Shown here one piece after another: positions 4,932 through 26,563 of a stretch of 32,111 bases of DNA. The notes under the pieces were generated by a model. The model worked only from the letters and a program-made list of their open reading frames with translations, was not told the origin of the DNA and did not search any database. The stretch's first letter is position 1; each line of letters begins with the position of its first letter. The stretch comes from Gemmatimonadota bacterium (GTDB lineage: Bacteria; Gemmatimonadota; Gemmatimonadetes; Gemmatimonadales; Gemmatimonadaceae), in contig JANNOC010000372.1 of assembly GCA_031398865.1 (NCBI GenBank), positions 1 to 32,111 on the forward strand, written 5' to 3'. The position numbers and the translations under genes were made by a program.

Positions 4932-5134
4932 CTTCCTCCTGTCGGGCGACGCGCGATATTTGCGTACGTGTGAGCCGCTCGCCGGCACCATCTCGACGCA
5001 CGTGGCATTCGTTTCGCGCGTCGCCCACGCTCCGGGCATCGCGGCGCCGACCGCGCGGCGGCGAGTCGAAGCGGATCCTGTTGGTCTCAACGCACTCGAT
5101 GCGGTGATCGCCGCATTCGGGAGGAGATGACAGC

Positions 5135-5419
5135 ATGCACAAGGAAGGCGAGCACACCCGAGCGCGACTCGCGTCAGTCGCCCGTGGTATTCTTCTGGTG
5201 GTCGCGCTCAGCGCGTGCGGAGGCACGGGGATCGCTCCGCAGGGGGAGGTGTCCACCGGGCAGGCGCTGATCGAACTGAGCGACGCGATCAACGCGATGC
5301 GAGATGACAACGCACTGTTGCAGGCGCAGGTGGATTCACTGCGCGTGGACATTGCGCGGCAGGACAGCGTGCTGCGGCAGGTCGCGGCGGTCGCGGGCGT
5401 CTCGATGCGAGTCCGCTGA
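5135..5419 (+). CDS. Small lipoprotein with a coiled-coil C-terminus
   Basis: GGGAGGAG lies before ATG 5135. The lipobox is LLVVALSAC. The mature part has a heptad-like pattern (LIELSDAINAMRDDNALLQAQVDSLRVDIARQDSVLRQV). Confidence 0.65.
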   Translation: MHKEGEHTRARLASVARGILLVVALSACGGTGIAPQGEVSTGQALIELSDAINAMRDDNALLQAQVDSLRVDIARQDSVLRQVAAVAGVSMRVR

Positions 5420-5441
5420 CGCGACGCGGGCGTCGAGCAGT

Positions 5442-5450
5442 TGCTATTAT
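5442..5450 (+). promoter_or_regulatory. Candidate extended -10 promoter (TGcTATTAT) for the selenoprotein-pfkA pair
   Basis: TGcTATTAT sits in the only AT-rich patch of the 55-nt gap, about 25 nt upstream of ATG 5475. AGAGGA lies between them as a Shine-Dalgarno site. Confidence 0.35.
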
Positions 5451-5474
5451 TACCGACGAAACGACAGAGGACCC

Positions 5475-5708
5475 ATGCGCATCTCGATCGAATACTGCAC
5501 TGTTTGAAACTACGAGCCCCGGGCTTCCAGTTTGGCGGCCGAGATCAGCAAACAGTATCCTAACGCGAAGGTCGAGCTCATTCCTTCGTCGCGCGGGCGG
5601 TTCGAAGTCGTGCGTGACGGCGCGGCCATTTTCGAGAAATCCAAGCTCGGCCGGCACGCCGACCCAGGCGAGGTGTTGAGAATGCTCACGACGTCCCCAG
5701 CGAAGTAG
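5475..5708 (+). CDS. SelW/Rdx-family selenoprotein, 77 aa, with in-frame UGA (Sec) at 5505-5507
   Basis: Reading through TGA 5505 gives MRISIEYCTV-U-NYEPRASSLAAEISKQYPNAKVELIPSSRGRFEVVRDGAAIFEKSKLGRHADPGEVLRMLTTSPAK, ending at TAG 5706-5708. The IEYCxxU redox motif, the GRFEV...DG..IF.K motif and the length match the Rdx (SelW/SelT/SelH) fold. The 67 codons after the TGA have no stop and mostly G/C at third positions. Confidence 0.85.
5507..5533 (+). promoter_or_regulatory. Candidate bacterial SECIS hairpin immediately 3' of the UGA
   Basis: AAACU (5507-5511) pairs with AGUUU (5529-5533). The upper stem pairs GAGCC (5514-5518) with GGCUU (5522-5526) and includes one G-U pair. There is a 2x2 internal loop and a small apical loop 14-16 nt from the UGA. 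Confidence 0.5.
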
Positions 5709-6788
5709 ATGCGAATCGCTCTGTCCACAGGCGGCGGCGATGCGCCGGGACTCAATGCCGTCATCCGTGCCGCGGTGCTCACGGCCATCAATCGGGGCTG
5801 GGAGGTGCTCGGTATCCGCAAAGGTTACGCGGGCCTTCTTGGAGACGATGAGGTCGTACCGCTTACCAAGGATTCCGTCCGCGGCATCGGACACCTCGGC
5901 GGAACGATTTTGAGGACGACGAATCGCGGCAATCCGTTCCACTACCCGCGTCTGCAGGCGGACGGTTCGTACGTCGAGGTGGATCGCTCCGACGAGATTA
6001 TCGCGAGTGCGGCGAATCTGGGGATTGACGCCATCATCTCGATCGGTGGCGACGGTTCACTGGCAATCGCGCAGCGTCTGTGTGCCAAGGGGATGAAGAT
6101 CGTGGGCGTTCCCAAAACCATCGACAACGATGTCAGTGGAACGATCACGTCGTTCGGCTTCGACACCGCGGTGAATACCGCGCTGGAAGCGATTGACAAG
6201 CTGCATACGACCGCCGAGAGCCACGACCGCGTGATTGTGCTGGAGGTCATGGGACGGGGTGCCGGCTTCATCGCTCTGCACAGCGGGCTGTCCGGGAGCG
6301 CCGACGTTATTCTCATCCCGGAGATCCCGTACGAGATCGAGAAGGTCTGCGACAAGGTCCGCGCGCGCGATCGCGTGGGCCGGCACTTCTCGATCGTTGT
6401 CGCCGCGGAAGGCGCCTATCCGAAAGGCGGCGCGGAGTCCACACTCGGGAATTCTCTCCCCGGACAGGCGAAGCGCGTTGGTGGAATCGCGGACAAGCTT
6501 GCCCGCGAGATTCAGGAGCGGACCGGCAAGGAAACGCGTTCGCTGGTGCTTGGCCACCTGCAGCGTGGCGGGATGCCCACCGGCTACGACCGCTTGCTGG
6601 CGACGCGCTTCGGCGCCGCCGCCGTGCGCGCTATCGCCGAAGAGAAGTGGGGACACATGGTCGCGCTGCAGTCGCCTCACATCGTGTACCTGCCGCTTGC
6701 CGAAGCGCTTGCGGAGCCGAAGCGCGTGGACCCCACGCACGACGTCGTCATCACCGCGCGGGCGACGGGGATTTCGTTCGGGGACTAG
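5709..6788 (+). CDS. pfkA: 6-phosphofructokinase
   Basis: Contains GGGDAPGLNA, ISIGGDGS and VPKTIDNDV, with full-length PFK-A architecture. Gly in GGDGS and Lys in PKTIDND suggest the actinobacterial-type ATP-PFK clade (inference). ATG 5709 directly abuts the upstream TAG. Confidence 0.9.
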   Translation: MRIALSTGGGDAPGLNAVIRAAVLTAINRGWEVLGIRKGYAGLLGDDEVVPLTKDSVRGIGHLGGTILRTTNRGNPFHYPRLQADGSYVEVDRSDEIIASAANLGIDAIISIGGDGSLAIAQRLCAKGMKIVGVPKTIDNDVSGTITSFGFDTAVNTALEAIDKLHTTAESHDRVIVLEVMGRGAGFIALHSGLSGSADVILIPEIPYEIEKVCDKVRARDRVGRHFSIVVAAEGAYPKGGAESTLGNSLPGQAKRVGGIADKLAREIQERTGKETRSLVLGHLQRGGMPTGYDRLLATRFGAAAVRAIAEEKWGHMVALQSPHIVYLPLAEALAEPKRVDPTHDVVITARATGISFGD

Positions 6789-6829
6789 CGGGGTGGCCGA
6801 TCCAAGTGGCGAGCGCAAGGACGCGCCGT

Positions 6830-8086
6830 TCACAGATACGACAGCCATCGCTTTTCCGGATGCCTCCGCTTGTACTCCGCATACCAGGCGCACAGCGGGT
6901 ACAGCAGCAGCGCGGTGACCACCCACCAGAAGTACACGCCCGCTAAACCGAAACCGTGATAGCCGGGCGGGTAATTGAAGACCGGCGTCTGGTACAGCCA
7001 TTCGGTCGGCTCGCCGCGCAGGTGCGCGACGCCAATGGCAAGCGCGTGCGCGAGCGGGAACTGCAGCAGATAGAAAAACAGCGGCACGCGTCCGAAGACG
7101 ATGAACGGGCGGGTGACCGCGTTGGGCTCGCGATCGAGCGCGCGCAGAAGTGCGATCGCCGGCCCCAGCGTCATGAGCAGGAAGAGCAGCGACGGAGGGT
7201 ATTTGGTGACGTTCAGGAACGACAGCACGGTAAAGACCGCGTCCTTCTGTGCAGACCAGCGCTGCGCATCACCGTAGATGTTGGTCAGGCGGATGACGAT
7301 GAAGGCGCCCGCGAGCGACAGTCCCAATCGCAGCAGTATCCGATTGCGCCGCTCTTTCTCCAGCAGCAGGATCGCGCCGAAGGCATAACCCGCCGCCATG
7401 ACGCCGATCCACGGAATCAGTGGATACAGCGTGAACCAGGTCCAGTTCGGCGCCAGCTGGATGGTGCCGGGCTGATGCAGCACCATCCACAGGGGGCGCA
7501 GCGTCCCGAACGCCGCCGGATTGATTCCATCGAGCAGGTTGTGCAACGCGATCATCGTGATGCCGAAGGCGGCGATGGCGCGCACCGGCAGGTGAATCAG
7601 CGCCGCGAGTACGATCATGGACCAGCCCAGTGCCCAGATCACCTGCGTCCACATGAATGATCGGTCGACCGTGAACGAGAGGCCCGTCTGCACGAGCGTC
7701 AACTCGAGGATGATGAGCCAGATGCCGCGCGTCACGAGAAAGCGCGAGAGCTCCGCCTTCGGCTTGCCGCGCGCTAAGGACAGGAACGCGCCTGTGCCCG
7801 AGAGAAACACGAAGACCGGGGCGCAGAAGTGCGTGATCCAGCGCGTCAGGAAGAGCGCCGGACTCGTTTGCGTCAGATCAGTGGGATCGAAGCGCGCGTC
7901 GGTGAAGTAGTCGCGTACGTGATCCAGCACCATGATCACCATGATGATGCCGCGCAGCAGGTCGACGGAGTCGAGACGACTGACGCTGCGGGTGGCGTCG
8001 CCGAGTGGAGCGGCCGTGTACGATCCGAACGGCGAGGACGGGGAGGGGGAGGGGGCGCGCGATTCAGCGGGGAGAGACGTAGCCAT
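6830..8086 (-). CDS. DUF1624 (heparan-alpha-glucosaminide N-acetyltransferase-like) polytopic membrane protein
   Basis: The motif DLLRGIIMVIMVLDHVRDYF is followed by about 10 hydrophobic helices. ATG is at 8086. Confidence 0.75.
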   Translation of the reverse strand: MATSLPAESRAPSPSPSSPFGSYTAAPLGDATRSVSRLDSVDLLRGIIMVIMVLDHVRDYFTDARFDPTDLTQTSPALFLTRWITHFCAPVFVFLSGTGAFLSLARGKPKAELSRFLVTRGIWLIILELTLVQTGLSFTVDRSFMWTQVIWALGWSMIVLAALIHLPVRAIAAFGITMIALHNLLDGINPAAFGTLRPLWMVLHQPGTIQLAPNWTWFTLYPLIPWIGVMAAGYAFGAILLLEKERRNRILLRLGLSLAGAFIVIRLTNIYGDAQRWSAQKDAVFTVLSFLNVTKYPPSLLFLLMTLGPAIALLRALDREPNAVTRPFIVFGRVPLFFYLLQFPLAHALAIGVAHLRGEPTEWLYQTPVFNYPPGYHGFGLAGVYFWWVVTALLLYPLCAWYAEYKRRHPEKRWLSYL

Positions 8087-8167: not shown

Positions 8168-9142
8168 TCAGGAGGTCGCGCCGCCGGCGTGCCTCGCTCT
8201 CTGTGCGTCGAACAACAGTGCCGTCAGCTCGGCGGCGTTCTGCGTGCCGTAGTGCGCGTAGCAGTTGTTCATCAGCACGTGAGTGCGTTGCGCCTGCGGG
8301 GCGACTCCGAGAATTTTCGGCACCCACTCGCCGAGCTCGGCGGCCGTGTAGAGGTATCGGTAGCGCTCGACCGTGGGGACATTGGGCACCTCCCACATCT
8401 CCACCCGCCGGCCGTGCATGCGGATGAGCGCAAGGCGCGGCGACGTCACCGCCGCGATGGGCGGGACGCTGCTCTCCAATCCCTGAGGACCGTCCACGAT
8501 AACGAGGGGAATGTCGTGCGTCGCGAAGAAGGCGAGCGTGCGCCGCGTCTTGTTTTTCTCTTCGCCGAACCAGCGATGGTTGCGCAGCTCGACGGGTGCG
8601 GCGATGTCACCCAGGCGCGACTGACCTTCCAGCAGCGTATCCACCGCGGCGCTGCAGGGGATGAACCAGCGCGGATACTGCATGAGCACCGCGCCGAGCT
8701 TTCCCGCCTCGCGCAGCGGCTCGAGCGCGTCGAGAAAGAGCCGCCACACTTCATCCATGATCGCGTGGGGCAGGTTTTTCGCGTACACCTTCCTCGAGGT
8801 GGCCAGCTCCGCCGGGAGTGCGGCGCGGAGATCCTTGGGCAGACGTGAGACTTCCGCGGGCTGTCCGGTCATGAGTGCGAAAGCCTTCAGATTGAAGACG
8901 AAGCCCGGCGGCGTGCGCTCGGCCCACAGTTCCGCGGTACGGCGGGCGGGGATCGCGTAATAGCTCGAGTCCACCTCCACGAGGGGAAAGCGCGAGGCGT
9001 AGAAGCGCAGCCGGGATTCCGGAGTCGTTGAGTCCGCGGGGTAGAAGCGGTCGCTCGCGAGGAGGGTAGGATCCGTCCACGACGCCGTTCCCACGAGGAT
9101 GTCGGGAGTTGGCTGGGAGGCGGCGTCCGGCACAAGTCGCAT
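8168..9142 (-). CDS. DUF72 (UPF0759, YecE-like) protein
   Basis: The N-terminal ILVGTASWTDPTL...FYP...RLRFYASRFPLVEVDSSYYA is the DUF72 signature. ATG is at 9142. Confidence 0.85.
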   Translation of the reverse strand: MRLVPDAASQPTPDILVGTASWTDPTLLASDRFYPADSTTPESRLRFYASRFPLVEVDSSYYAIPARRTAELWAERTPPGFVFNLKAFALMTGQPAEVSRLPKDLRAALPAELATSRKVYAKNLPHAIMDEVWRLFLDALEPLREAGKLGAVLMQYPRWFIPCSAAVDTLLEGQSRLGDIAAPVELRNHRWFGEEKNKTRRTLAFFATHDIPLVIVDGPQGLESSVPPIAAVTSPRLALIRMHGRRVEMWEVPNVPTVERYRYLYTAAELGEWVPKILGVAPQAQRTHVLMNNCYAHYGTQNAAELTALLFDAQRARHAGGATS

Positions 9143-9324: not shown

Positions 9325-9347
9325 CTAATGGGTGCCGATAGCAGGAT

Positions 9348-9376
9348 GGACCGGCTGCACGACGGACCGGCTGCAC
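9348..9376 (+). repeat. Exact 13-nt direct repeat GGACCGGCTGCAC, two copies separated by 3 nt
   Basis: Copies at 9348-9360 and 9364-9376. The period is 16 nt, so it is not codon-phased. It ends 12 nt before the start codon. Confidence 0.9.
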
Positions 9377-9388
9377 ATGGGGGACTGC

Positions 9389-10072
9389 ATGAAGCATCGC
9401 TCGCACGTCATTCTCACCTTCGCGCTCGTCGTGGTGGCTGCGGTCTCCGCGCCGCTCGGAGCGCAGGGATGGGATCGCAAACCGGCTATTCCTCCGGGTC
9501 ACCGTCCGCCAGCCGGGATGTGTCGCATCTGGATTGATGGTGTGCCTCCAGGACAGCAACCCGCTCCGACCGATTGCGCGACGGCGGTGCGTAATCGCCC
9601 GTCCAACGGCCGCGTCATTTTCGGCAGCGATGCGCGCGTGGACCGGCGCGGCAAGCGCGACGATGAGCGCGATGATGACACTGAGCGCGGCCGTCGTTCG
9701 CGCGGCTCCGATGACGACACCGACCGCAATCGTCGCTCGAGCAGCCCCGACACGTGCGTTGACGCGAACCGTGACGGACGCTGCGACCTCGTCTACCGCC
9801 GCGTGGATGGACAGCGTTCGCTTCCGCAAATGGTCGGCGCCGTTCTCTTCGAACGTGGCCGCACCTCCTCCGATGTGACGCGATGGCTGGGCGGGTCCGC
9901 GACCGCGGGATCATATGTGGACGCCGATCGCGACGGCGTGCCCGAACGGGCGACCTGGCGCGATGCTGCCGGCCAGATCGTGCAGATATGGACGGACACC
10001 AACCGCGACGGCCGAGCCGATCGCGTGGACGTCTACGAGAAGGGCCGCATCGTCCGATCGGTTCGCCCGTAA
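9389..10072 (+). CDS. Secreted hypothetical protein with a Pro/Cys motif, an Arg/Asp-rich linker and three DxDxDG motifs
   Basis: Signal peptide MKHRSHVILTFALVVVAAVSAPLGAQG. Motif PPGHRPPAGMCRIWIDGVPPGQQPAPTDC. Calcium-loop-like motifs DANRDGRCD, DADRDGVPE and DTNRDGRAD. Confidence 0.7.
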   Translation: MKHRSHVILTFALVVVAAVSAPLGAQGWDRKPAIPPGHRPPAGMCRIWIDGVPPGQQPAPTDCATAVRNRPSNGRVIFGSDARVDRRGKRDDERDDDTERGRRSRGSDDDTDRNRRSSSPDTCVDANRDGRCDLVYRRVDGQRSLPQMVGAVLFERGRTSSDVTRWLGGSATAGSYVDADRDGVPERATWRDAAGQIVQIWTDTNRDGRADRVDVYEKGRIVRSVRP

Positions 10073-10152: not shown

Positions 10153-12846
10153 ATGCTGCGACCCGTTCAGGACCGCTACCTCCCGCCGGATCACGACGCG
10201 TTCGTGGCCGCGGAGCCCCCGACCGGGCGCGTGATCATCATCGCGCCGACCCGTGCAGCGTGCGAGACCATCGAGCTGGCCCTCGGCCTGACGATCGACA
10301 CGTATCTCGAGCGCACCAACGGTGCGCGCGTGCGTGCGCTGGCCGCGTCGGGACGGGGCTTCGGCATCGTCGCGGGTACGGGCACCGGAAAGACGCTCGC
10401 GACGCGCCCGATCGCGCAGACGATTCTGCGCAGTGATGACCTCAGGGTCGGCGTCGTCAACCGCGAGCGCGAGGCGACGCCTGAGACGCCGACGTGGAAC
10501 GTCATTATCGTCACCACCGGGATCGCGCGCCGCTGGTTCCAGGACAACGATATCCTGGCGACCGATACGCTGATCGTGGACGAGATCCACCAGACATCGG
10601 CGGAGCTGGAGCTGTGCCTCGCGTTAGGCAAGCGCGTCGGATGTCGCTTCATCTGGCTGTCCGCCACCGTGGATCCCACGTTCTATCGGGAATATCTGGG
10701 CAGCGCGGACGTCCTCGAGGTGTACTCCTTCGACGCCGCCAAGGCCGCGGACGTCAAGCTGGTGCGGCGCAATCCCCTGGATTTCCTGGACGACCGCTTC
10801 CTGCAGGGGGTGGTGAAGCAGAAGCGGGGTGTGGGCATGTTTCTGCCGACGCGCGCGGGCGTCGAGCAAGCGGCGGCGGCGGTGGGACTGCGTGCCCCGC
10901 GCATCAACACCGCCTACTATCACGGCGGCGAGCCCATTCGGGTTCTGCGTCCTTTTCTCGAAGGTGGCGAGCGCAAGCCCTATTTCCTCGCCATGACGGC
11001 GGCGGGACAGAGCGCGCTCAACGTGCAGGGGTTGGACACGGTCGTCATTGACGACACGCGCTTCGCGAACGTCATCGAGCGTGGCAAGAATGTGTTGACC
11101 AAGCTGCACCTCGGCGCCAACGAGATCCTGCAGATGGCCGGGCGCGTGCACGGCCGCGTGCCGGGTGGGCGCGTGTTCATCCTCTCCGACCGCGACATCG
11201 AGTTCTCCGCGCTACGGCCCACAGCCCCCGACTTTCAGCTCGCGGGCGATTCCGAGCGCGTCGCGCTCACGTGCGCCGATCTCGGGGTGCGCGCGGACGA
11301 GCTGGAGCTCCCGGTGCCGCTCGACCGGGTTGCGTACCGGCGCGCGGTCACGCTGCTCGAGGGGCGTGGCATCATCGCGGCGGGCCGGCTCTCCGCGTAT
11401 GGCAAATCGGTCGAGGCGCTGCCCGTGGATCGGCCATGGGCCGAGCTGATCGTGAACGCGTCGGATGAGCTGATCCCGTATCTCGCGGTGATGAGTTCGA
11501 TCGAGTCGCTGCATCGGATGACCCGTGAGGACCGCGACCTCGACGGCCTTGTCGTCCCCGGCAGTGACAATCTCACTGCGTACAACCTGTACGCCGAAGC
11601 GTACCGGCAGTGCGGGTACATGGGCGAGGTGTACGGCCTCCAGCGCCACCTCTTTGACGACAGCGTTCAGCGCTGGGCGGAACGGCGCGGCGTCCTGGTC
11701 AAGGCAATCGAGGATGCCGCGCTCGCGGCGGCGAGCGTATTCCGCGGCGTTGGCCTGCCACTCGCCACCGCGATGCCGATGGCGGGCGAGCACATTCATC
11801 GCGCCTTCAGCGAACTGCTCGCGCAGATCATGCCGTTCGATCTCGTCATCGACGAGCACACCACGGACGGCCAGGAAGCCCGCGTATCCAAGACGAGTGT
11901 GTGTGGAAGCTGGGGAGCGATTGCGGGCGAGTTGCGCTACTTCGCCGACAAGTTCGGCGTGGCGCGCGCGTCCATCGAGGGCACGCAGATTCCGATGGAT
12001 CGCGTGCGGAAGTACGCCACCGCGGGCTCGCCGGAACTGATCTACGAGCCGCATCGTCGCAACGGCTCGCTCGCGCTGCGCCGGCGCGTCGAGTATTTCG
12101 GCTTCGAGCTGGAGCGGGACGTGGAGTCCGTGGAAGACTTCCCTCCCGAACTCGCGGCGCAGGCGCGCCAGGTGCTCGCGGAGGCGCTCGCGCGGTTCGA
12201 GGCGCGCCACGTCGCGGTGAAGAAGAACCGCGCCGCCATCGAGGAGCTACGCGAGATTCATCGCCGTTCGGGCGGTCGGACACCACGCCTCGGCGCCGTG
12301 GAGCTCGCCGCGCTGTATGAGGAGCAGCTTCGCGACGTCACCTCGATGGATGAATTCCGCGCCGCTTCGCTGGTGGTGGATCGCGATCACTTCGTGCCGC
12401 GCGCTGAGCGCGAGCGCTACATGGCGCTGGCGCAGTCCGTGACCGTGCGCGACCGTGACGTGGAGCTGGACTACGATGTGGAGGAGCGCGACGGCGAGAC
12501 CGCTGGGGTCATCCGACTGCGTCTCCCGGAGAAGCTCGCCCGCACGTTGACCGAGGCGGAAGTGCCCATACTGGACCGTCCGGTGCGCTTCACGGTCTTG
12601 CGCGGACAGCGCGGCTCCGTGCGCGCGGACACGTTAGGCGAGTTACAGGAGCTGCTCGCGCGCCCATGGTCGACGGACGAGACGGCGAACGGCAAGCGGC
12701 GTGATCGCGAGGGTGAGGATTTCGCGTCGCGCGAGGAGCGTCGCGTGCGGTCGCTCGCGGCTGACCGCCAGGGCGGGCGGGATGGTCGCGGTAGTCGTGG
12801 CGAGCGCGGCGGCGGCCGCGGCAAACGCCGGCGCCGGTCGCGATGA
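10153..12846 (+). CDS. DEAH/RHA-family ATP-dependent helicase (HrpA/HrpB-like) with an Arg/Gly-rich C-terminal tail
   Basis: Motif I GTGTGKT, motif II VDEIH, SAT (LSATVD), motif VI-like QMAGRVHGRVPGGRVFIL. An HA2-like region has SDNLTAYNLYAEAY. The tail is GGRDGRGSRGERGGGRGKRRRRSR. No Shine-Dalgarno site is seen, so the start is less certain. Confidence 0.8.
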   Translation: MLRPVQDRYLPPDHDAFVAAEPPTGRVIIIAPTRAACETIELALGLTIDTYLERTNGARVRALAASGRGFGIVAGTGTGKTLATRPIAQTILRSDDLRVGVVNREREATPETPTWNVIIVTTGIARRWFQDNDILATDTLIVDEIHQTSAELELCLALGKRVGCRFIWLSATVDPTFYREYLGSADVLEVYSFDAAKAADVKLVRRNPLDFLDDRFLQGVVKQKRGVGMFLPTRAGVEQAAAAVGLRAPRINTAYYHGGEPIRVLRPFLEGGERKPYFLAMTAAGQSALNVQGLDTVVIDDTRFANVIERGKNVLTKLHLGANEILQMAGRVHGRVPGGRVFILSDRDIEFSALRPTAPDFQLAGDSERVALTCADLGVRADELELPVPLDRVAYRRAVTLLEGRGIIAAGRLSAYGKSVEALPVDRPWAELIVNASDELIPYLAVMSSIESLHRMTREDRDLDGLVVPGSDNLTAYNLYAEAYRQCGYMGEVYGLQRHLFDDSVQRWAERRGVLVKAIEDAALAAASVFRGVGLPLATAMPMAGEHIHRAFSELLAQIMPFDLVIDEHTTDGQEARVSKTSVCGSWGAIAGELRYFADKFGVARASIEGTQIPMDRVRKYATAGSPELIYEPHRRNGSLALRRRVEYFGFELERDVESVEDFPPELAAQARQVLAEALARFEARHVAVKKNRAAIEELREIHRRSGGRTPRLGAVELAALYEEQLRDVTSMDEFRAASLVVDRDHFVPRAERERYMALAQSVTVRDRDVELDYDVEERDGETAGVIRLRLPEKLARTLTEAEVPILDRPVRFTVLRGQRGSVRADTLGELQELLARPWSTDETANGKRRDREGEDFASREERRVRSLAADRQGGRDGRGSRGERGGGRGKRRRRSR

Positions 12847-12871
12847 ACTGGCGCCTCCCACCGCTGACGTC

Positions 12872-15061
12872 ATGACGGCCGATTTCTCGGCGGAGCAGCG
12901 ATTCGCCCTGCAGGATCGCGTGGCGCGCGTCATCGCGGAGGCGCCGACACTCGATCACGCCATCGAGCGCCTGCTCGCGACGATCGGATCACAGCTCGAC
13001 TGGCCCATCGGCATGTACTGGCACCGGCCGGTCGGCTCCGACCGGCTACGCGTACGCGCGGTCTGGCACGCGGAGGGGAGTACCGTCAATGCGTTGGCGG
13101 CGGCGAGCCACGCCTGGACGTTTCGCCGCGGCGAGGGATTTCCGGGGCGCGTCTGGCAGGCGCGGCGACCGCTGTGGCTGGCGAACCTTGCAGCCGATGA
13201 TCTGTTTGTGCGAGGCGATGCCGCCCTCGCCGTGGGTGTGCGCGGCGCATTCGCTTTCCCGGTCGCCTCGGGGGACGAGCTATTGGGCGTCATGGAGTTC
13301 TTTCAAGCGGAAGCGAGCGAGCCGGACGCAGCGCTGGTGGCCCTGTGCGAAGGGGTCGGTGCGCAGATCGCCGCGTTTGCGGAGCGCGACCGCGGAGAGC
13401 GCGCGATCCGGGAGAGCGAGGCACTCAAGACGGGCATTCTCGAATCCGCGCTCGACAGCATCGTCACCATGGATGAGCACGGGAAGATCAGTGAGTTCAA
13501 TCCCGCCGCGGTGCGCATGTTCGGGTACACACGGGACGAGGCGATCGGTCGGTCGCTAGCCGACACGATCATCCCGCCCTCCTATCGCGACGCGCATCAC
13601 CGGGGCATGGCGCGATATCTCGTGACCGGTGAGCAGAGCGTGCTCGGACGGCGCATCGAGGTGTCCGCGATTCGCAAGGATGGATCCGAGTTTCCGTGCG
13701 AGCTCGCGATCACGCGCCTGCCGCTCGCCGGACCTCCGTCGTTCGCCGGGTACATTCGCGATCTCACCGAGCGCAGGCGCGCGGAAACCGCCATGCGCTT
13801 CGTAGCGGAGACCAGCGTCGCCCTGGCCTCGTCGCTGGACTATCGCGCCACGCTCGTCGACATCGCGCGGCTGGCCGTGCCCGCGATCTGCGACTGGTGT
13901 GTCGTCGAGTTGCTGGAGGGCGACCAGGGGCTCCGGCCGGTAGCCGCCGTCCACCGCGATGCGGCGAGCGTCGCGCGCATTCTTCAGGTGCACGCCGATT
14001 GCGAGGGAGCGGTCGCGTCGTACTGTCCGCGGCGCGTTGCCCGAACCGGCATTACCGAGTGGGTCCCGGACGTGGCGTCGAGCGCGCCGGCAGCGCACGA
14101 CCTCGAGTCCAATGACGCGCTGCGCGAGCTGCAGTTGCGCGCGTACGTCATCGCGCCGTTGACGCTGCGCGGCGCGAGCTTCGGAACGATTACCTTCGCG
14201 AACAGCGCGTCGAGCCGTGCGCTCACCGACGCCGACCGTATCCTCGCCGAGGACATCGGGAGGCGCGCCTCGGTCGCGATCGAGAACGCGCGGCTCTTCG
14301 AGGAATCGGAGCGCGCACGCGACTCGGGGGAAGTGGCCAACCGCGCCCGAACGGAATTTCTGGCGATGATCAGCCATGAGCTCCGCACGCCGCTCAATGC
14401 CATCGGCGGTTACTCGCAGCTGCTCGAAATGGGATTGCATGGGGACATCACCGATGCGCAGCGCGATGCGCTTTCGCGAATCAGCCGCAACCAGGAGCAC
14501 CTGCTCGGCCTGATCAACAACATCCTGAACTTTGCGAAGGTCGAGGCGGGTCGCGTGCAGTTCGACCTGGTGCCGACGCGCGTGAGCGAGGTCGTTGCGG
14601 GACTCGAGGCTCTGATTCATCCGCAGGTGCTGGCGAAGCAGCTGACGTTCGAGGTCCAGGACGGACACCCTGCCGCGTGCGTCGTAGCGGACGCCGAGAA
14701 GATGCGGCAGGTACTGGTCAACCTGCTCTCGAACGCCGTGAAATTCACGGACACGGGTGGCCGCGTGACGCTGCAGTGGGCCGTTGCCGCGACGACCGTT
14801 GCGATCTGCGTGAGTGACACTGGCGTCGGAATCCCGGCGGCCCGGGTGCGCGACATCTTCGAGCCGTTCGTGCAGGTAAATGCCGCGCTGACGCGGGAGA
14901 GCGAGGGGGTGGGACTCGGGCTCGCGATCAGCCGGGAGATTGCGCGAGCGATGAGCGGGGAGCTGTCGGTGGAGAGCGAACCCGGCAAGGGGTCCGCCTT
15001 CACCTTTACGCTTCCGCGCGCGGCCGACGCCGCGAGCGTCCCGCGCGCGTCGCCCTCCTAG
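12872..15061 (+). CDS. Soluble sensor histidine kinase, GAF-PAS-GAF-HisKA-HATPase_c
   Basis: PAS core SIVTMDEHGKISEFNPAAVRMFGYTRDEAIGRSL. H-box FLAMISHELRTPLNAI. N-box NLLSNAVKFT. G-boxes DTGVGI and GVGLGLAISREIA. There is no transmembrane segment and no receiver domain. ATG 12872 lies 26 nt after the helicase stop. Confidence 0.85.
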   Translation: MTADFSAEQRFALQDRVARVIAEAPTLDHAIERLLATIGSQLDWPIGMYWHRPVGSDRLRVRAVWHAEGSTVNALAAASHAWTFRRGEGFPGRVWQARRPLWLANLAADDLFVRGDAALAVGVRGAFAFPVASGDELLGVMEFFQAEASEPDAALVALCEGVGAQIAAFAERDRGERAIRESEALKTGILESALDSIVTMDEHGKISEFNPAAVRMFGYTRDEAIGRSLADTIIPPSYRDAHHRGMARYLVTGEQSVLGRRIEVSAIRKDGSEFPCELAITRLPLAGPPSFAGYIRDLTERRRAETAMRFVAETSVALASSLDYRATLVDIARLAVPAICDWCVVELLEGDQGLRPVAAVHRDAASVARILQVHADCEGAVASYCPRRVARTGITEWVPDVASSAPAAHDLESNDALRELQLRAYVIAPLTLRGASFGTITFANSASSRALTDADRILAEDIGRRASVAIENARLFEESERARDSGEVANRARTEFLAMISHELRTPLNAIGGYSQLLEMGLHGDITDAQRDALSRISRNQEHLLGLINNILNFAKVEAGRVQFDLVPTRVSEVVAGLEALIHPQVLAKQLTFEVQDGHPAACVVADAEKMRQVLVNLLSNAVKFTDTGGRVTLQWAVAATTVAICVSDTGVGIPAARVRDIFEPFVQVNAALTRESEGVGLGLAISREIARAMSGELSVESEPGKGSAFTFTLPRAADAASVPRASPS

Positions 15062-16326: not shown

Positions 16327-17778
16327 TCAGCCGACGCCGGCGCTCGGCAGGCCGACGGAGCGACTGACGCGTTTCGCGAGCCGCTGCAGACCGTCGTACG
16401 CGGCGTACTTGTAGGCGTCCCCGAGCGTCGGATAATTGAAGACGGCCTGGATGAAGAAGTCGATCGTGCCGTTGTACATCATGCACGCCATGCCGATGTG
16501 AATCAGCTCTGACGCGCCCTCGCCGATCACGGAGACGCCGAGGAGCCGCTGATCCTCCGGGCGGAAAATCAACTTCACAAAACCTTCCAGATCGCCGAGG
16601 ATGAGACCGCGCGGGTTGAGCCGGAAGCTCGCCTTGCCGATCTCGTAGCGAATGTCCTTGCCGCGGACGCTCTCTTCCGTTTCGCCCACCATCGCGCATT
16701 CCGGAATGGTCCACACCGCGTAGGGAAGCACCGGCGACACACGGTCCTTGTACCGGAAGTCAAACGCGTGGCAGATCCCGACGCGCGCCTGCTCCATCGA
16801 CGTGGACGCGAGCGCGGGATAGCCGATCACATCTCCCGCGGCGTAGATGTGGGGAATGGCCGTGCGGAAGTGTTCATTGACATGGATGTAGCCGCGGGCG
16901 TTCGTGGTGATCCCGGCCGCCGCGAGCGAGAGATCCGCGGTGTTGCCCACGCGTCCGACGCAGTACAGGACGCAGTCCGCGCCGAGCTCCGTGTCGTCCG
17001 TCAGCGTCACGTGCGCGAAGCCGTCCTCCACGCGCAGGGCAGCGACCTCCGAGTCGTTATGCACGGCGATGCCGAGGCGGCCCGTCATCTGTGACCGCAG
17101 CGTCTCGCTCACCTCGCCGTCGAGTTGCATCAGCAGCCGTTCCTTCACGTTGATCAGGGTGACGCGAACCCCGAGCGCCGCGAACATGCAGGCGAACTCG
17201 CAGCCGATGACGCCGCCGCCCACCACGACCATCCGGCGCGGGATCTTCTCGAGGCGCAGCACTGAATTGCTGTCCACGATCACCTGGTCGTCGAACGGCA
17301 CGTCACTCGGACGTTGCGGGACACAGCCGGTCGCGATGAGAAAGACTTCGGCACTCAACCGCCGCGGCTCCTGGCCGAAACGCAGAATCTCCACGGTGTG
17401 CGCGTCCACGAAGCGCGCCGAACCCTGCATCACCGTGACATTGTGTTTCCTGAGATTCTCGTCGATGAGCTGCCACTCCGTCTCGACGACGGCGCGCTCG
17501 CGATGCATGAAATCCGCGATGGTGATGTCGCGCTTCACCGTGTAGTCCACGCCGTACAGCCCGCGCTGCCGCAGCCCGGAGAAGTACAGCGCGGTTTCCC
17601 GCAGCGTCTTGGACGGGATGGTGCCGGTATTGACCGCCGCGCCGCCCGGCTTCGGGGCGCGCTCGATGATGCACACCCGCTTGCCAAAATACGCGGCCTG
17701 CGCCGCGCCCTTTTCTCCCGCGGGGCCGGCGCCAATGATCACCAGATCGAAATGGTCGGGCAGATGCTTCTGAATCAT
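16327..17778 (-). CDS. sthA: Soluble pyridine nucleotide transhydrogenase (Si-specific NAD(P)+ transhydrogenase)
   Basis: FAD site VIIGAGPAGEKGA. GGAAVNTGTIPSK lacks the CxxxxC disulfide of lipoamide dehydrogenases, as in SthA. A second Rossmann motif is VVVGGGVIGCEFA. ATG 17778 overlaps the upstream stop (ATGA). Confidence 0.8.
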   Translation of the reverse strand: MIQKHLPDHFDLVIIGAGPAGEKGAAQAAYFGKRVCIIERAPKPGGAAVNTGTIPSKTLRETALYFSGLRQRGLYGVDYTVKRDITIADFMHRERAVVETEWQLIDENLRKHNVTVMQGSARFVDAHTVEILRFGQEPRRLSAEVFLIATGCVPQRPSDVPFDDQVIVDSNSVLRLEKIPRRMVVVGGGVIGCEFACMFAALGVRVTLINVKERLLMQLDGEVSETLRSQMTGRLGIAVHNDSEVAALRVEDGFAHVTLTDDTELGADCVLYCVGRVGNTADLSLAAAGITTNARGYIHVNEHFRTAIPHIYAAGDVIGYPALASTSMEQARVGICHAFDFRYKDRVSPVLPYAVWTIPECAMVGETEESVRGKDIRYEIGKASFRLNPRGLILGDLEGFVKLIFRPEDQRLLGVSVIGEGASELIHIGMACMMYNGTIDFFIQAVFNYPTLGDAYKYAAYDGLQRLAKRVSRSVGLPSAGVG

Positions 17779-18763
17779 GCGGGCGGACTGGTCGAAGTGC
17801 TGTCGGAGGTGCCATCGGGCATCGTCAGCGCGTCCTCGCGATAGACGATCCACCCCGTGACGTCATCCGCCACGAGCTCGACCTCCGTGCCGATTGGGAT
17901 GGTGAGGTTCGGCACCTCGTGCCCCGCCGGAAAATCCATGAGGATCGGCACGCCGAGGTCGGAGACGAGGTCCACGATAAAGTCCTCGAATTCGTCCTCT
18001 TCGGACCGATCCAGCGAGAGCTGGCCGAAGATCACTCCGCGAACATGACGAAGCAGACCTGCCGCGCGTAAATGCACCAGACGCTCGTCCGCGAAGGACA
18101 TGGGATCCCGCGTCTCCTCGAGAAAGAGAATCGCGTCCTTCGTATCGATCTCGTACGGCGTGCCGATGGTCTGCTGCACGAGCGACAGATTGCCCCCGGT
18201 GAGCCGCCCGATGGCGCGCCCCGGGCGCACGACCCGCGCGATGTCGCGTCCGATCCTGGTGGTGGGTCGCGGCACGGTCAGCGCCGTGAGCAGCGACGAC
18301 ATCGTCGGGTCGCGTGTGCTCGGGATGAGGTCGTCCACAGTCGGCCCGTGGAAGACGCGCAACCCCGAGCGCCGCATGAGCCACAGGTGCAGCGCCGTGA
18401 CGTCGGAATAGCCGACGAACGCCTTGGGATTGCGGCGAAACACTTCGGGCTCGAGGTGGGGAAGCATGCGCATCGCACCATAGCCGCCGGTCCCGCTGAT
18501 CACGGCCTTCACGCGCGGATCGAGCCACATTCCCATGAAGTTCTCCGCGCGGCGCTCGTCTTCGTGGCGCTGAAAGCGGCGCAACTGCGCGATCTCGGAA
18601 TCCAGGATGACGCCGTAGCCGGCGCGTTCCAGTGCCCGGACGCCACGCGCGAGCCAACCCGGCCGCGGTGCATACGATGGTGCCACGACGCCGATGGTGT
18701 CCCCCTTCGTCAGCGCCGCCGGCCGCAGCAGGGGAGGAGGCGTGTGCGCGCTGTCCTCGGCGG

Positions 18764-23084: not shown

Positions 23085-24152
23085 TCAGCTCACCCGCGCG
23101 TCGGCGGGTGGCGGGCGCCGCGCACCGACGTTCCACCATCGACGCAGCCCCAGCATGGCGAACGGGAGGACGATGGGGAACGCAAGAAAGAGAATGCGTC
23201 CCAGGTTCAGCCCGAAATACAGAATGGTCAGCGCAAGCATGGGAACAAAAAGCGCCCACCGCCGCAGTGCTGGCGTCCCGTCGCCGCGCGCGTACGCGTG
23301 TACCGCGGGGACCCACAGAAGGCCGAACGATGAGAAGAGATCGATGAGACGGTTTGGACGCGTGAACACCGAGGCGACGAAGCGCAGCGCGCGCTCCAGG
23401 CCGTGTGCGCCCGAAGCGGCCGCGGGAAGATAGTCGCCCGGAGCGGGAAACCAGACGAAACGCGCTCCGAGATACAGCAGGATGCCTGGTGCCGCCGCCA
23501 ACAGGAAAATGGCCCGGGTGCGCCATGATTCCACCGCGAGCAGGGCAAGCGGCAGCACGAGAACGATGGATTCTTTTGCGAGCATTCCCACGGCGACGGC
23601 AACGCCGAAGAGCCACACGTTCGCGACGCGAAGTGCGAGCACCGCCAGGACAAAGAAAAACCAGCTCGCGGGATCCACCGACGGAACGCCGCCCGCCTGC
23701 AGCACGGGCATCGAGGTGAAGAAGAGCAACGTCCCGAGCAGCGATTCCACCGGCGTGAACGCCAAGGTCGCCAGCAGGAGATACAGGACGCCGGCGGTCA
23801 GTGTCAGGAAGAGCACGTTGACGAACCGGAGTTTTACCGAGGCGATCCACGCATCCGTTGGCGCAGGGCGCGACGAGATGGCGCGCAGCGGTGCATCGGG
23901 AATGAGACGCGCCATTGCCGGCACGAGTACGCGATAGTGCCAATGGCCGCCCGGACTCGCGCCCTGCACCATCCCGACGTATCGCTGCGGATCGCGATAC
24001 GCGCTGGTGCGTTGCTGCACCGTCTCCGGCTCGAAGAGCTGTGCATGGGACAACGCGATCGCGTAGCTCGCCATGGTCCAGACGACGATCAGAGCAGCGA
24101 GACGCGGGAGAGGAATGCGCGGGAGCGACTGTGCCGGCGCACGGCCGGTCAC
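23085..24152 (-). CDS. Polytopic membrane protein (about 10 helices), family not recognised; possibly GT-C-like or polymerase-like
   Basis: Hydrophobic helices run throughout the protein. GTG 24152 overlaps the kinase stop (GTGA). An alternative ATG at 24074 would cut the first helix. The track ORF from 24731 is an overlap artefact. Confidence 0.6.
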   Translation of the reverse strand: MTGRAPAQSLPRIPLPRLAALIVVWTMASYAIALSHAQLFEPETVQQRTSAYRDPQRYVGMVQGASPGGHWHYRVLVPAMARLIPDAPLRAISSRPAPTDAWIASVKLRFVNVLFLTLTAGVLYLLLATLAFTPVESLLGTLLFFTSMPVLQAGGVPSVDPASWFFFVLAVLALRVANVWLFGVAVAVGMLAKESIVLVLPLALLAVESWRTRAIFLLAAAPGILLYLGARFVWFPAPGDYLPAAASGAHGLERALRFVASVFTRPNRLIDLFSSFGLLWVPAVHAYARGDGTPALRRWALFVPMLALTILYFGLNLGRILFLAFPIVLPFAMLGLRRWWNVGARRPPPADARVS

Positions 24153-26389
24153 AGCCGCATCTTCTGCACGAGCGCCTCGAAGCGCGGATCTCCGCGCACC
24201 GGGTCGAACATCGGATTGACCTTGAGATAGGCCAACCAGCCGCGGCGCTCTTCGAACGCGCGCTCGGCCCAGTGCAACGCATCGTCCAGCCGGCCGAGCC
24301 CAAAATGAATGGTGCTCAACGCGACCGGTGAGATGTAATCGGACCGTGCTGCCGTTTCGAGCTCGTGGAGCAGCGCTTCCGCCGCGTCGCGCTGCCCGGC
24401 GCGGGCCAATGCGTAGCCAAGGGTGGCGGTGGTATATGAGCTCGCGCCGTGCATCCCCACCGCCTCGCGCAGGACGCGCTCGGCTTCGTCGAGATCGCCA
24501 GCCTGCGTGAGCGCGAGACCGAGGACGCGGTAGTTCTCCTCCGCTGTGGGATTCATCGCGATCGCCCGCATCAGATGGTACCGCGTCTGCTCGTACCGCC
24601 GGGCATAGTAGTACTGCCAGCCCAGACTGCGGCGCACGGAGACCGACGCCGGATCGAGCTCCTGCGCGGTGTGCGCCTCGACCAGCGATTCCTCCATTCG
24701 TCCCTGCGATGCGAGCAGAAACGCGTACCATTGGTGCGCGGTCGCATAGCGAGGGTCGAGCTCGATCGCGCGGCGGAACTCACGCCAGGCGCCATCCCAG
24801 TCCCAGCCGTGGATGAAGAGACTCCACGCCAGCGACGCGTGTGCTTCGGCCAGCGTCTCGTCCAGTTGCAGCGCCTTGCGGGCGTAATATTCGGCGCGGC
24901 GGAACCCCTCGGCGACCGGGACGCTGCGATAGTCGATCTGCAGAGCATAGGCGTCCGCGAGCCCGGTATACGCGGGCGGGTAACCCGGGTCTTCCTCGAT
25001 GGCCTGCTCGAAGTACTGGATCGCTTCGCTGACGCCCTCCTGCGTGCGCTTGTTCCAGGCGTAGCGTCCTTTGAGATACAGGCCGTAGGCCTTGACGTTC
25101 TCGGTGTATCGCTTCGGGACCGGGAGCGCGTTCAGGTCGGCGAACGACGTCGTCAGCAGCGTGTTCACGATCGTGCGCGCGATCTCATCCTGAATGGCGA
25201 ACACGTCGTCGAGCTTCCGGTCGTAGCGTTGTGACCAGAGCAGGCCCCCGTCGCCGGTGGACGTGAGCTGCGCTGTGATGCGCAGGCGATCGCCGGACTT
25301 TCGCACCGTCCCTTCGAGAACGACGGACGCGCCAAGCAGCGCGCCGATGGCACGGACGTCCTGCGATTTCCCCTTGAGCGCGAACACCGACGTGCGTGAG
25401 GCGATGCGCAATCCGTCCACCTTGGTGAGGGCATCGATCAGCTCGTCGGTAATGCCGTCACTCAGGTATTCATTGTCCGCGTCGGAGCTCGCGTTGATGA
25501 AGGGGAGTACCGCGATCGTGCGGGTCGCGGGGAGGTAGGCTCGTCCGTTTTCTCGCTCGACGGAGCGCAGTGCGGCGATGAAGTCGGGCACCGTCGCGAA
25601 CCGCTGGGCCGGATCCTTAGCGAGTGCCTTGGTCAGCGCCCGTTCCACGCTGGGCGGCACGTCGGGCCGATGCGCGCGCACGAGCTGGGGTGTTTCGGTG
25701 ACGTGCTTCGCCATCGTCGCGCGCGCACTGCCGCCGTCGAAGGGAGGCTGTCCGGCGAGCATCTCGTACACCACGCACGCGAGGCTGTAGATATCGCTTG
25801 GCGTGCCGAGATTCGCCTCGCCGCTCGCCTGCTCGGGACTCATGTATTCCGGCGTGCCGATCGCGATGCCTGTCTCGGTCACCGGAGGGCTGTTCTCACC
25901 ACAGCACGCGCGCGCAACGCCGAAATCCGCGAGCACGGCGTGCCCATCAGCGAAGAGCACGTTCTCGGGCTTCACGTCACGGTGCACGAAGCCGTTGCGG
26001 TGCGCGTAGTCCAACCCGGCGCCGACCTCATGGGCAATGCGCAGGGCGTCCGCGAGTCCGAGCTGTGCTTCACTGTCCAGCCGGTCGCGCAGGGAGCCGC
26101 CGGGCACGAACGGCGAGACGTAATACAGCAGGCCGCCACTCTCGCCCGAATCGATCAAGGGGACGATGTGCGGATGGGACAGTCGCGCCGCAATGCCGAT
26201 CTCGCGCAGAAAGCGCTCCGCTCCCAGCGATGCCGCCAGCTCCGGTCTGAGCACCTTGATGGCGACCTTGCGGCCGTGCTTGTGCTCGTCGGCGAGGTAC
26301 ACCGTCGCAAAGCCACCGCGCCCAAGCTCCCGCTCGATCGTGTATCGATCCGCGAGCAGCGCGGTGAGCGGAGTCGAGACCGTTTCCAT
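24149..26389 (-). CDS. Ser/Thr protein kinase with a TolB-N-like domain and TPR repeats
   Basis: GRGGFATVY, AIK, HRDVKPENVL, DFGVA and GTPEYMSPE. Next comes IAVLPFINASSDADNEYLSDGITDELIDAL...VLEGTVRKSGDRLRITAQL. TPR-like repeats follow, rich in Ala, Tyr, Leu and Asp. ATG is at 26389; the 356 codons upstream in the track ORF are an extension. Confidence 0.85.
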   Translation of the reverse strand: METVSTPLTALLADRYTIERELGRGGFATVYLADEHKHGRKVAIKVLRPELAASLGAERFLREIGIAARLSHPHIVPLIDSGESGGLLYYVSPFVPGGSLRDRLDSEAQLGLADALRIAHEVGAGLDYAHRNGFVHRDVKPENVLFADGHAVLADFGVARACCGENSPPVTETGIAIGTPEYMSPEQASGEANLGTPSDIYSLACVVYEMLAGQPPFDGGSARATMAKHVTETPQLVRAHRPDVPPSVERALTKALAKDPAQRFATVPDFIAALRSVERENGRAYLPATRTIAVLPFINASSDADNEYLSDGITDELIDALTKVDGLRIASRTSVFALKGKSQDVRAIGALLGASVVLEGTVRKSGDRLRITAQLTSTGDGGLLWSQRYDRKLDDVFAIQDEIARTIVNTLLTTSFADLNALPVPKRYTENVKAYGLYLKGRYAWNKRTQEGVSEAIQYFEQAIEEDPGYPPAYTGLADAYALQIDYRSVPVAEGFRRAEYYARKALQLDETLAEAHASLAWSLFIHGWDWDGAWREFRRAIELDPRYATAHQWYAFLLASQGRMEESLVEAHTAQELDPASVSVRRSLGWQYYYARRYEQTRYHLMRAIAMNPTAEENYRVLGLALTQAGDLDEAERVLREAVGMHGASSYTTATLGYALARAGQRDAAEALLHELETAARSDYISPVALSTIHFGLGRLDDALHWAERAFEERRGWLAYLKVNPMFDPVRGDPRFEALVQKMRL

Positions 26390-26401
26390 GCCGCGAATAT
26401 G

Positions 26402-26415
26402 GCGCGACGTCGCGC
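26402..26415. promoter_or_regulatory. Perfect 14-bp palindrome GCGCGACGTCGCGC
   Basis: It is its own reverse complement and lies 13 nt upstream of kinase ATG 26389. Confidence 0.5.
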
Positions 26416-26488
26416 GGAGCGTGAGGCGATGATCGGTGTCCCGCGGCACCACGCGGCATAGCTCCGCGCGCCGCAAGCGGATGCGCGT

Positions 26489-26502
26489 GTGACGCGCGTC
26501 AC
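26489..26502. promoter_or_regulatory. Perfect 14-bp palindrome GTGACGCGCGTCAC
   Basis: It is its own reverse complement and lies 62 nt upstream of ATG 26564, in the same 174-bp divergent intergenic region. Confidence 0.5.
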
Positions 26503-26563
26503 CACATCGTTTCCACCGGCTCCCGGCGGGTGACTCCGCCCGCGCGCGAGTCGTCGTTTGTGG

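Follow-up and report, generated by a model that had tools for sequence, protein, structure and literature searches.

Organization of the locus and its start region

The stretch of DNA studied here (32,111 nt, referred to below as the window) carries a small gene of the SelW-like (Rdx) family that is interrupted by an in-frame TGA and followed, with no intervening nucleotide, by a gene for 6-phosphofructokinase (pfk). The features of this locus are listed in Table 1. As read from the sequence, the small gene has ten codons including the ATG (MRISIEYCTV), the TGA as its eleventh codon, 66 sense codons, and a TAG at 5706-5708. Of this gene, the ORF listing contained no more than a 58-residue ORF from TTG 5532 and the end of a same-frame ORF that starts at ATG 5304 and stops at the TGA, its last ten residues being MRISIEYCTV. 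This confirms the observation of the first-pass annotation that the ORF track holds just a ten-codon tail of the gene. Its further statements, that reading through the TGA gives a 77-residue protein with a C-T-V-U motif and a GRFEV..DG..IF.K core and that no other stop occurs before TAG 5706, were also borne out, the core being present as GRFEV..DG..IFEKSK. GC content at the three codon positions of the joined frame was 0.55/0.48/0.77, compared with 0.67/0.47/0.79 in the neighbouring pfk, which agrees with the host-like third-position G/C bias noted previously. Long antisense ORFs were also present over the region (5289-5942 and 5510-5821, both on the reverse strand); such ORFs are a usual by-product of DNA with 67% GC.

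Table 1. Coordinates of the features of the SelW-like locus within the window.
Feature	Position	Strand	Basis or remark
Extended -10-like element TGcTATTAT, possible own promoter (weakly indicated)	5442-5450	+	Located in the 55-nt intergenic spacer
Shine-Dalgarno-like AGAGGA	5466-5471	+	GAGG core ends 4 nt before the ATG; sequence not conserved among orthologous loci
SelW-like (Rdx family) CDS, predicted selenoprotein	5475-5708	+	77 residues, U at position 11, TAG stop included; family HMMs and 80 orthologues of like architecture
CxxU redox motif, TGC ACT GTT TGA = C-T-V-U (C8-T-V-U11; Cys8 TGC at 5496-5498)	5496-5507	+	Alignment to the CxxC of PDB Rdx proteins
In-frame UGA, predicted selenocysteine codon	5505-5507	+	TGA in 80/80 best Gemmatimonadota loci; TGC in a metagenomic orthologue
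SECIS-type hairpin	5522-5540	+	RNAalifold consensus of 81 sequences; alignment columns 18-36
Artefactual short ORF with TTG start, 58 aa, reported by ORF callers instead of the full gene	5532-5708	+	ORF listing and database fragments
6-phosphofructokinase (PFK_mixed), 359 aa	5709-6788	+	TIGR02483, 437 bits vs cut-off 430.55

Relatives of the gene were collected from reference genomes, represented by one genome per species; the source genome was absent from this set, and the best identity was 76%. The scan returned 213 relatives, the best 80 of which (64-76% identity) all belonged to Gemmatimonadaceae or to other Gemmatimonadota MAGs. These 80 sequences (L001-L080) and the window copy were combined into the alignment of 81 sequences used throughout this study. 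All 80 best relatives carried TGA at codon 11, within the motif I-E-(Y/F)-C-x-x-U-x-Y.

The alignment supported 5475 as the start codon, since M or V occupied that column in the orthologues and conservation was lost upstream, where the 30 nt preceding the start were unconstrained (mean entropy 1.91 bits in the 81 sequences). The Shine-Dalgarno site and the extended -10-like element proposed in the first-pass annotation were both found in the sequence; however, a scan of positions 5000-7000 for the strict sigma-70 consensus (-35/-10) detected no promoter, and the Shine-Dalgarno sequence was not conserved among the orthologous loci. TAnnnT hexamers occurred between -60 and -1 in 52 of the 81 loci, as against about 23 in shuffled sequences. 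At some loci (L014, L033, and L065), the hexamers lay as close as 4-9 nt to the start codon. The spacing in these regions hints that some of the loci may produce short-leader or leaderless mRNAs.

Family, fold, and conservation on both sides of the TGA codon

For the family and PDB searches, U was replaced by C. The 77-residue sequence matched the Pfam Rdx family (PF10262) with 68.8 bits (cut-off 22.6), and residues 2-70 were aligned, across the TGA, with profile positions 1-71 of 74. It also matched the NCBIfam equivalog NF041051, "SelT/SelW/SelH family (seleno)protein" (97.7 bits vs a cut-off of 88), and TIGR02174 (55.3 bits vs a cut-off of 34.2). The best sequence match in PDB was Atu0228 (2fa8; E = 1.8e-9), over residues 2-69. 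In the comparison with PDB sequences, C-T-V-[U] was aligned with CTQC of 2fa8 and with CEPC of MIEN1 (2ljk). The first-pass annotation had proposed examining whether the U faces a Cys in homologues; it was found to align with the TGC codon of a metagenomic orthologue (L081, protein P0005) and with the second Cys of CxxC in bacterial Rdx structures.

The fold was tested by proxy, using an AF2 model of P0005, a natural Cys orthologue that is 64% identical to the window protein. The model had a pLDDT of 91.6, with strand 1 at residues 2-8, a CVVC motif at residues 8-11, and helix 1 at residues 14-27; the motif thus starts on the last residue of strand 1, ahead of helix 1. In Foldseek comparisons, this model superimposed on the bacterial SelW-related structures 2fa8, 2ojl, and 2oka with TM scores of 0.85-0.90 and rmsd values of 1.1-1.7 A, and, as judged through P0005, the protein has the thioredoxin-like beta-alpha-beta-beta-beta-alpha fold. 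The model, the Foldseek matches, and the motif alignment therefore indicate that a strand integral to the fold, together with half of the active site, is specified by the ten codons that precede the TGA.

Conservation within the alignment gave a similar picture at the nucleotide level. Across codons 2-10 of the 81 sequences, mean column entropy was 0.48/0.34/1.00 bits at the first, second, and third codon positions, respectively, and periodicity of this kind was present on both sides of the TGA. Ile5, Glu6, and Cys8 were invariant in the 81 sequences and were encoded by two or three synonymous codons each (TGC or TGT for Cys8). This codon-periodic entropy and the synonymous variation at invariant residues indicate that the segment before the TGA is translated in the frame of the remainder of the gene.

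Gene callers routinely shorten members of this selenoprotein family. A protein search returned approximately 55 fragment homologues of 42-61 residues. The 11 fragments that were retrieved all started with "LAAE/LAAA...", with L-R-E-T..., or later, that is, at or past the column of the window TTG, and several fragments had been named "selT/selW/selH-like putative selenoprotein" or "predicted Rdx family selenoprotein" by JGI. The TTG at 5532-5534 is the conserved Leu20 codon; its first two bases are the final loop positions (5532-5533) of the hairpin described below, and its third base (5534) begins the 3' arm. Dozens of database entries begin with "LAAE..." because gene callers take this conserved TTG as a start. 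The main value of our finding accordingly lies in annotation, in that a real gene is missed or shortened by standard ORF calling, as has happened dozens of times in the annotation of public metagenomes.

In the reading adopted by ORF finders and by most annotated metagenomes, the TGA is a genuine stop; the real product would then be the 58-residue protein from TTG 5532, and the ten upstream codons would be a separate mini-ORF or non-coding. This explanation is hardly credible, as conservation at the protein level, in the same frame and with synonymous variation, extends over those ten codons in the 81 sequences, and the codons encode strand 1 and the CxxC/U motif, both of which the Rdx fold needs. 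Moreover, the ORF from the TTG alone scored 36.4 bits against Pfam Rdx, a value that doubles when the upstream codons are included, and the TTG itself is a conserved Leu codon inside the hairpin. The first-pass annotation had named a conserved protein beginning after the TGA as an outcome that would speak against its proposal; that start proved to be a gene-calling artefact at the TTG in the hairpin loop.

Rather than a truncated ORF, positions 5475-5708 very probably constitute a functional gene for a 77-residue SelW-like (Rdx family) protein with a thioredoxin fold and a CxxU active site, in which the UGA is predicted to specify selenocysteine (Sec). SelW-like CXXU proteins are an established family of bacterial selenoproteins; they were the most abundant such family in the Sargasso Sea metagenome and are present in Geobacter, Desulfotalea, Symbiobacterium, and other bacteria (PMC1088965, PMC1794560). 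The window protein resembles those described in its family HMM match, its size of about 75 residues, its N-terminal CxxU, and the presence of a hairpin with a G in its loop shortly downstream of the UGA (PMC1088965, PMC1794560). Unlike the described members, it belongs to a Gemmatimonadota clade for which we found no published description, in which the Sec form occurs in nearly every species representative and the gene usually lies upstream of pfk. The gene is therefore not a new kind of element; it is a further, otherwise ordinary member of a known family, from a lineage new to the SelW-like literature that we searched, and a curated NCBI model already names the family.

Cys-containing Rdx structures (Atu0228 2fa8, 2ojl, 2oka, 2obk, 3dex, and 2p0g) are similar to the window protein in sequence, in modelled fold, and in the place of the redox motif. 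They differ in having CxxC, a length of about 100 residues with extra termini, 22-35% identity, and no SECIS. Eukaryotic selenoprotein W and MIEN1 (2npb and 2ljk) likewise belong to Rdx and have a thioredoxin-like fold with CxxU (SelW) or CxxC (MIEN1) after strand 1. The relationship to eukaryotic SelW is distant, however, as the P0005 model matched mouse SelW with a TM score of 0.69 and E = 0.038. The SECIS of eukaryotes is also structurally different and is found in the 3' UTR.

The downstream hairpin and proposed decoding of the TGA codon

The RNAalifold consensus contained a conserved hairpin shortly after the TGA. In the window, its outer stem is formed by the pairs G5522-C5540, G5523-C5539, C5524-G5538, and U5525-G5537, followed by a 1x1 mismatch (U5526/C5536; columns 22/32) and by the pairs C5527-G5535 and C5528-G5534. 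The apical loop is A-G-U-U-U (5529-5533; columns 25-29), in which an A-U closure is possible and would leave a three-base loop. The loop G (5530; column 26) was invariant and is located 22 nt after the UGA, and the next base was U in most sequences. All six pairs were standard in all 77 distinct sequences, and the hairpin was paired in 81/81.

Compensatory changes were detected in three of the six pairs. Pair 18-36 was GC (60), CG (8), AU (6), UA (2), or UG (1); pair 21-33 was CG (63), GC (8), UG (5), or UA (1); and pair 23-31 occurred as CG, UG, and UA. Both sides had changed in 28 cells, whereas shuffling gave 3.1 +/- 1.6 such cells (0 of 500); when the 3' partner was displaced by one to three columns, pairing fell to 19-55%. 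Pairs 18-36 and 21-33 both fall on four-fold degenerate third positions, the covarying columns being the third positions of Arg16, Ala17, Ala21, and Ala22. Because these positions are free under protein selection, the constraint must be on the RNA. Third-position entropy was 0.69 bits in codons 12-20, compared with 1.30 bits in the remaining gene, and in the 81 sequences Thr/Ala18 always ended in C and Leu20 was always YUG. The alignment thus offers an unusually clean, covariation-backed example of a putative minimal bacterial SECIS, written wholly in synonymous codon positions.

Folded alone, the segment 5522-5540 adopted the consensus register at -8.7 kcal/mol (z about -1). Such stability is not exceptional for GC-rich sequence, and we count this against the Sec reading. 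In addition, no Rfam family reached its gathering score over the whole window, and the matches around the gene were at chance level. Since stability is unremarkable and Rfam gave no match, the case for a SECIS rests on covariation. A longer minimum-energy hairpin extending from the UGA (5505-5547; -15 kcal/mol, z = -1.06) was rejected, as 80.6% of its cells were paired compared with 80.7% in shuffles, and its covariation score was below that of the shuffles. The first-pass annotation had placed a hairpin at 5507-5533; it was right in expecting a SECIS after the UGA, but the fold it drew roughly corresponds to the unconserved minimum-energy structure, whereas the conserved hairpin is the one at 5522-5540.

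Bacterial SECIS elements are located directly downstream of the UGA and have a small apical loop with a G (PMC1088965). The position and loop of the hairpin fit these published features, and we assign it as a predicted bacterial SECIS. The minimal SECIS of Escherichia coli fdhF is a 17-nt upper stem-loop in which U17 is bulged; it begins 11 nt downstream of the UGA, and its loop contains G23/U24 (PMC8659212). Like the fdhF element, the window hairpin is short and lies within the coding sequence just after the UGA. Its stem starts 14 nt after the UGA instead of 11 nt, and in place of a 5' bulged U it has the 1x1 mismatch, whose 3' base is an almost invariant C; the combination of bulged U and 11-nt spacing that characterizes the fdhF type was thus absent. 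There is also no conserved lower stem reaching back to the UGA. The apical loop of fdhF, which we take to be A-G-G-U-C-U, is resembled by the A-G-U-(U/C)-U loop found here, the invariant G and the mostly conserved U being located at +26/+27 as compared with +23/+24 in fdhF. By analogy, the hairpin would work like the fdhF SECIS, although it is not of that exact type.

Six full-length database entries had W, G, R, or C at the U position, and four of them were looked up at the DNA level. P0005, which is metagenomic, has TGC at the Sec codon (L081, 155-157) and is a true Cys form. P0002 is listed with W; its DNA has TGA (L083, 657-659), and translating the locus with table 11 does not yield the entry, so that the source gene caller apparently read UGA as Trp. 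The public entries with W at this position are P0002-P0004, and the DNA look-up covers P0002 of these. GGA (Gly) was found for P0001 (L085, 432-434) and AGA (Arg) for P0006 (L082, 495-497), each one base away from TGA and each on one short contig. The hairpin is retained in the Cys and Gly alleles; in the Arg allele, SECIS pair 21-33 is replaced by a C-C mismatch. These rare TGC, GGA, and AGA alleles may reflect Sec-to-Cys conversion and decay, or assembly errors. The GGA and AGA variants count against the Sec reading, implying either that some populations can do without the residue or that the contigs contain errors. Variants without TGA are strongly over-represented among full-length entries, because full-length calls arise only when the TGA is gone.

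TGA ends 15 of the 22 genes in the window, indicating that UGA is the main and ordinary stop codon here and that read-through is gene-specific, with recoding confined to this locus. ARAGORN detected no tRNA gene in the 32-kb window and, in the 80 related loci, a single tRNA-Gly and no tRNA-Sec. Tblastn searches with approximate E. coli queries found no SelA, SelB, or SelD in the window or in 1.3 Mb of related loci, and none of the annotated window proteins was one of the three. We count this absence against the Sec reading; for the related loci it is expected, because all of them cover the same syntenic 20 kb. The gene-poor stretches of the window at 22.0-24.2 kb and 27.4-29.1 kb contained ordinary ORFs, with no TGA-split gene evident in these two stretches.

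The database entries with W or G, and the fact that Sec machinery was not observed in the window or the related loci, might be explained if the UGA were read through without Sec, by near-cognate insertion of Trp, Cys, or Arg or by a lineage-specific reassignment of UGA. We consider this highly unlikely. The W entry that was checked, P0002, is a TGA translated by the source gene caller, and the use of UGA as a terminator in the window speaks against reassignment. The position is, moreover, that of the catalytic second Cys of CxxC, where only Cys or Sec is chemically sensible, and the hairpin, which covaries and has its loop G as far from the UGA as in a SECIS, is the signal for SelB.

It could also be argued that the Sec-type allele is inactive in the source genome, the Sec machinery having been lost or the gene being in decay, and the AGA and GGA variants on single contigs, one of them with a broken SECIS pair, are of the kind that decay would produce. 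There is very little probability that this applies to the window copy, which is intact in its start, its CxxU motif, and all six SECIS pairs and is free of frameshifts. In addition, all 80 species representatives (80/80) keep the TGA and the hairpin under compensatory evolution, which would be unexpected if the lineage had lost decoding.

The in-frame UGA of this SelW-like gene almost certainly encodes selenocysteine. From the maintained SelB-type signal, we infer that the host possesses Sec machinery on which decoding depends (SelB and tRNA-Sec) and that selenium is incorporated at the UGA. In the proposed mechanism, the ribosome would reach the UGA at codon 11, selenocysteine would be inserted there, and translation would go on to the TAG. 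The product would most likely be a small thiol/selenol oxidoreductase. The original suggestion of a SelW/Rdx selenoprotein gene hidden by UGA recoding is therefore upheld by the family HMMs, the alignment with Cys, the coding conservation on both sides of the TGA, and the covarying hairpin. These observations also indicate that selenocysteine is decoded in this member of the Gemmatimonadota and apparently in most of its family. Our literature search, which covered Gemmatimonadota, Gemmatimonas, BSepDB, and the use of selenium in different bacterial phyla, found no publication on this capacity in the phylum, which we likewise count against the Sec reading. The known picture of how selenoproteins work is unchanged by the finding.

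Linkage to phosphofructokinase and the surrounding genes

As the table indicates, the pfk ATG directly abuts the TAG of the SelW-like gene in the window (gap 0). A pfk gene on the same strand followed the SelW-like gene in 62 of the 80 related loci, and the gap was -4 to 112 nt in 60 of these. In the remaining 18 of the 80 loci, the gene directly after the SelW-like gene was a homologue of the window ORF 9332-10072. This conserved adjacency suggests a selW-pfk operon, and the two genes are probably co-transcribed, so that the SelW-like gene would share its transcription with the abutting pfk. We found no report of selW-pfk linkage in bacteria, and the conserved adjacency is a lead to the function of bacterial SelW-like proteins.

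As a speculation to which we attach a low probability, the Gemmatimonadota SelW-like protein might not be a free-standing antioxidant but might be dedicated, as a redox partner or regulator, to the phosphofructokinase encoded by the co-transcribed and often abutting gene; the conserved secreted D/R-rich protein encoded downstream could be a second partner. If this were true, glycolytic flux would be tied to selenium and redox status, and a bacterial SelW-like protein would for the first time have been given a physiological role.

The forward-strand ORF 9332-10072 encodes 246 residues with a signal-peptide-like N-terminus and a D/R-rich middle, and has no Pfam or NCBIfam match; a homologue was present downstream of selW in 71 of the 80 loci. 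In the window, an acyltransferase_3/HGSNAT-like gene (6830-8086) and a DUF72 gene (8168-9142), both on the reverse strand, lie between pfk and this ORF. Upstream of selW, the loci also often retain a small lipoprotein-like ORF and, on the opposite strand, a pseudopilin-like gene. ORF 5135-5419 on the forward strand encodes 94 residues of no known family, with a lipobox-like LSAC and a coiled-coil-like tail, and was found upstream of selW in 34 of the 80 loci.

Farther along the window, the forward-strand ORF 10153-12846 (897 aa) has a marginal DEAD-box match (27.5 bits), and its span overlaps the start of the PAS/GAF histidine kinase ORF 12701-15061. A soluble pyridine nucleotide transhydrogenase gene (SthA-type, NF003585, 541.6 bits) is located at 16327-17853 on the reverse strand, approximately 10 kb from the selenoprotein gene. 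The longest ORF for a Ser/Thr kinase-TPR protein (24149-27457, reverse strand) overlaps ORF 26558-28516 on the forward strand, which encodes 652 residues of repetitive sequence. The kinase domain of the reverse-strand ORF begins only at residue 372, implying that the true start of the kinase is probably near 26350 and that both overlapping genes are probably real.
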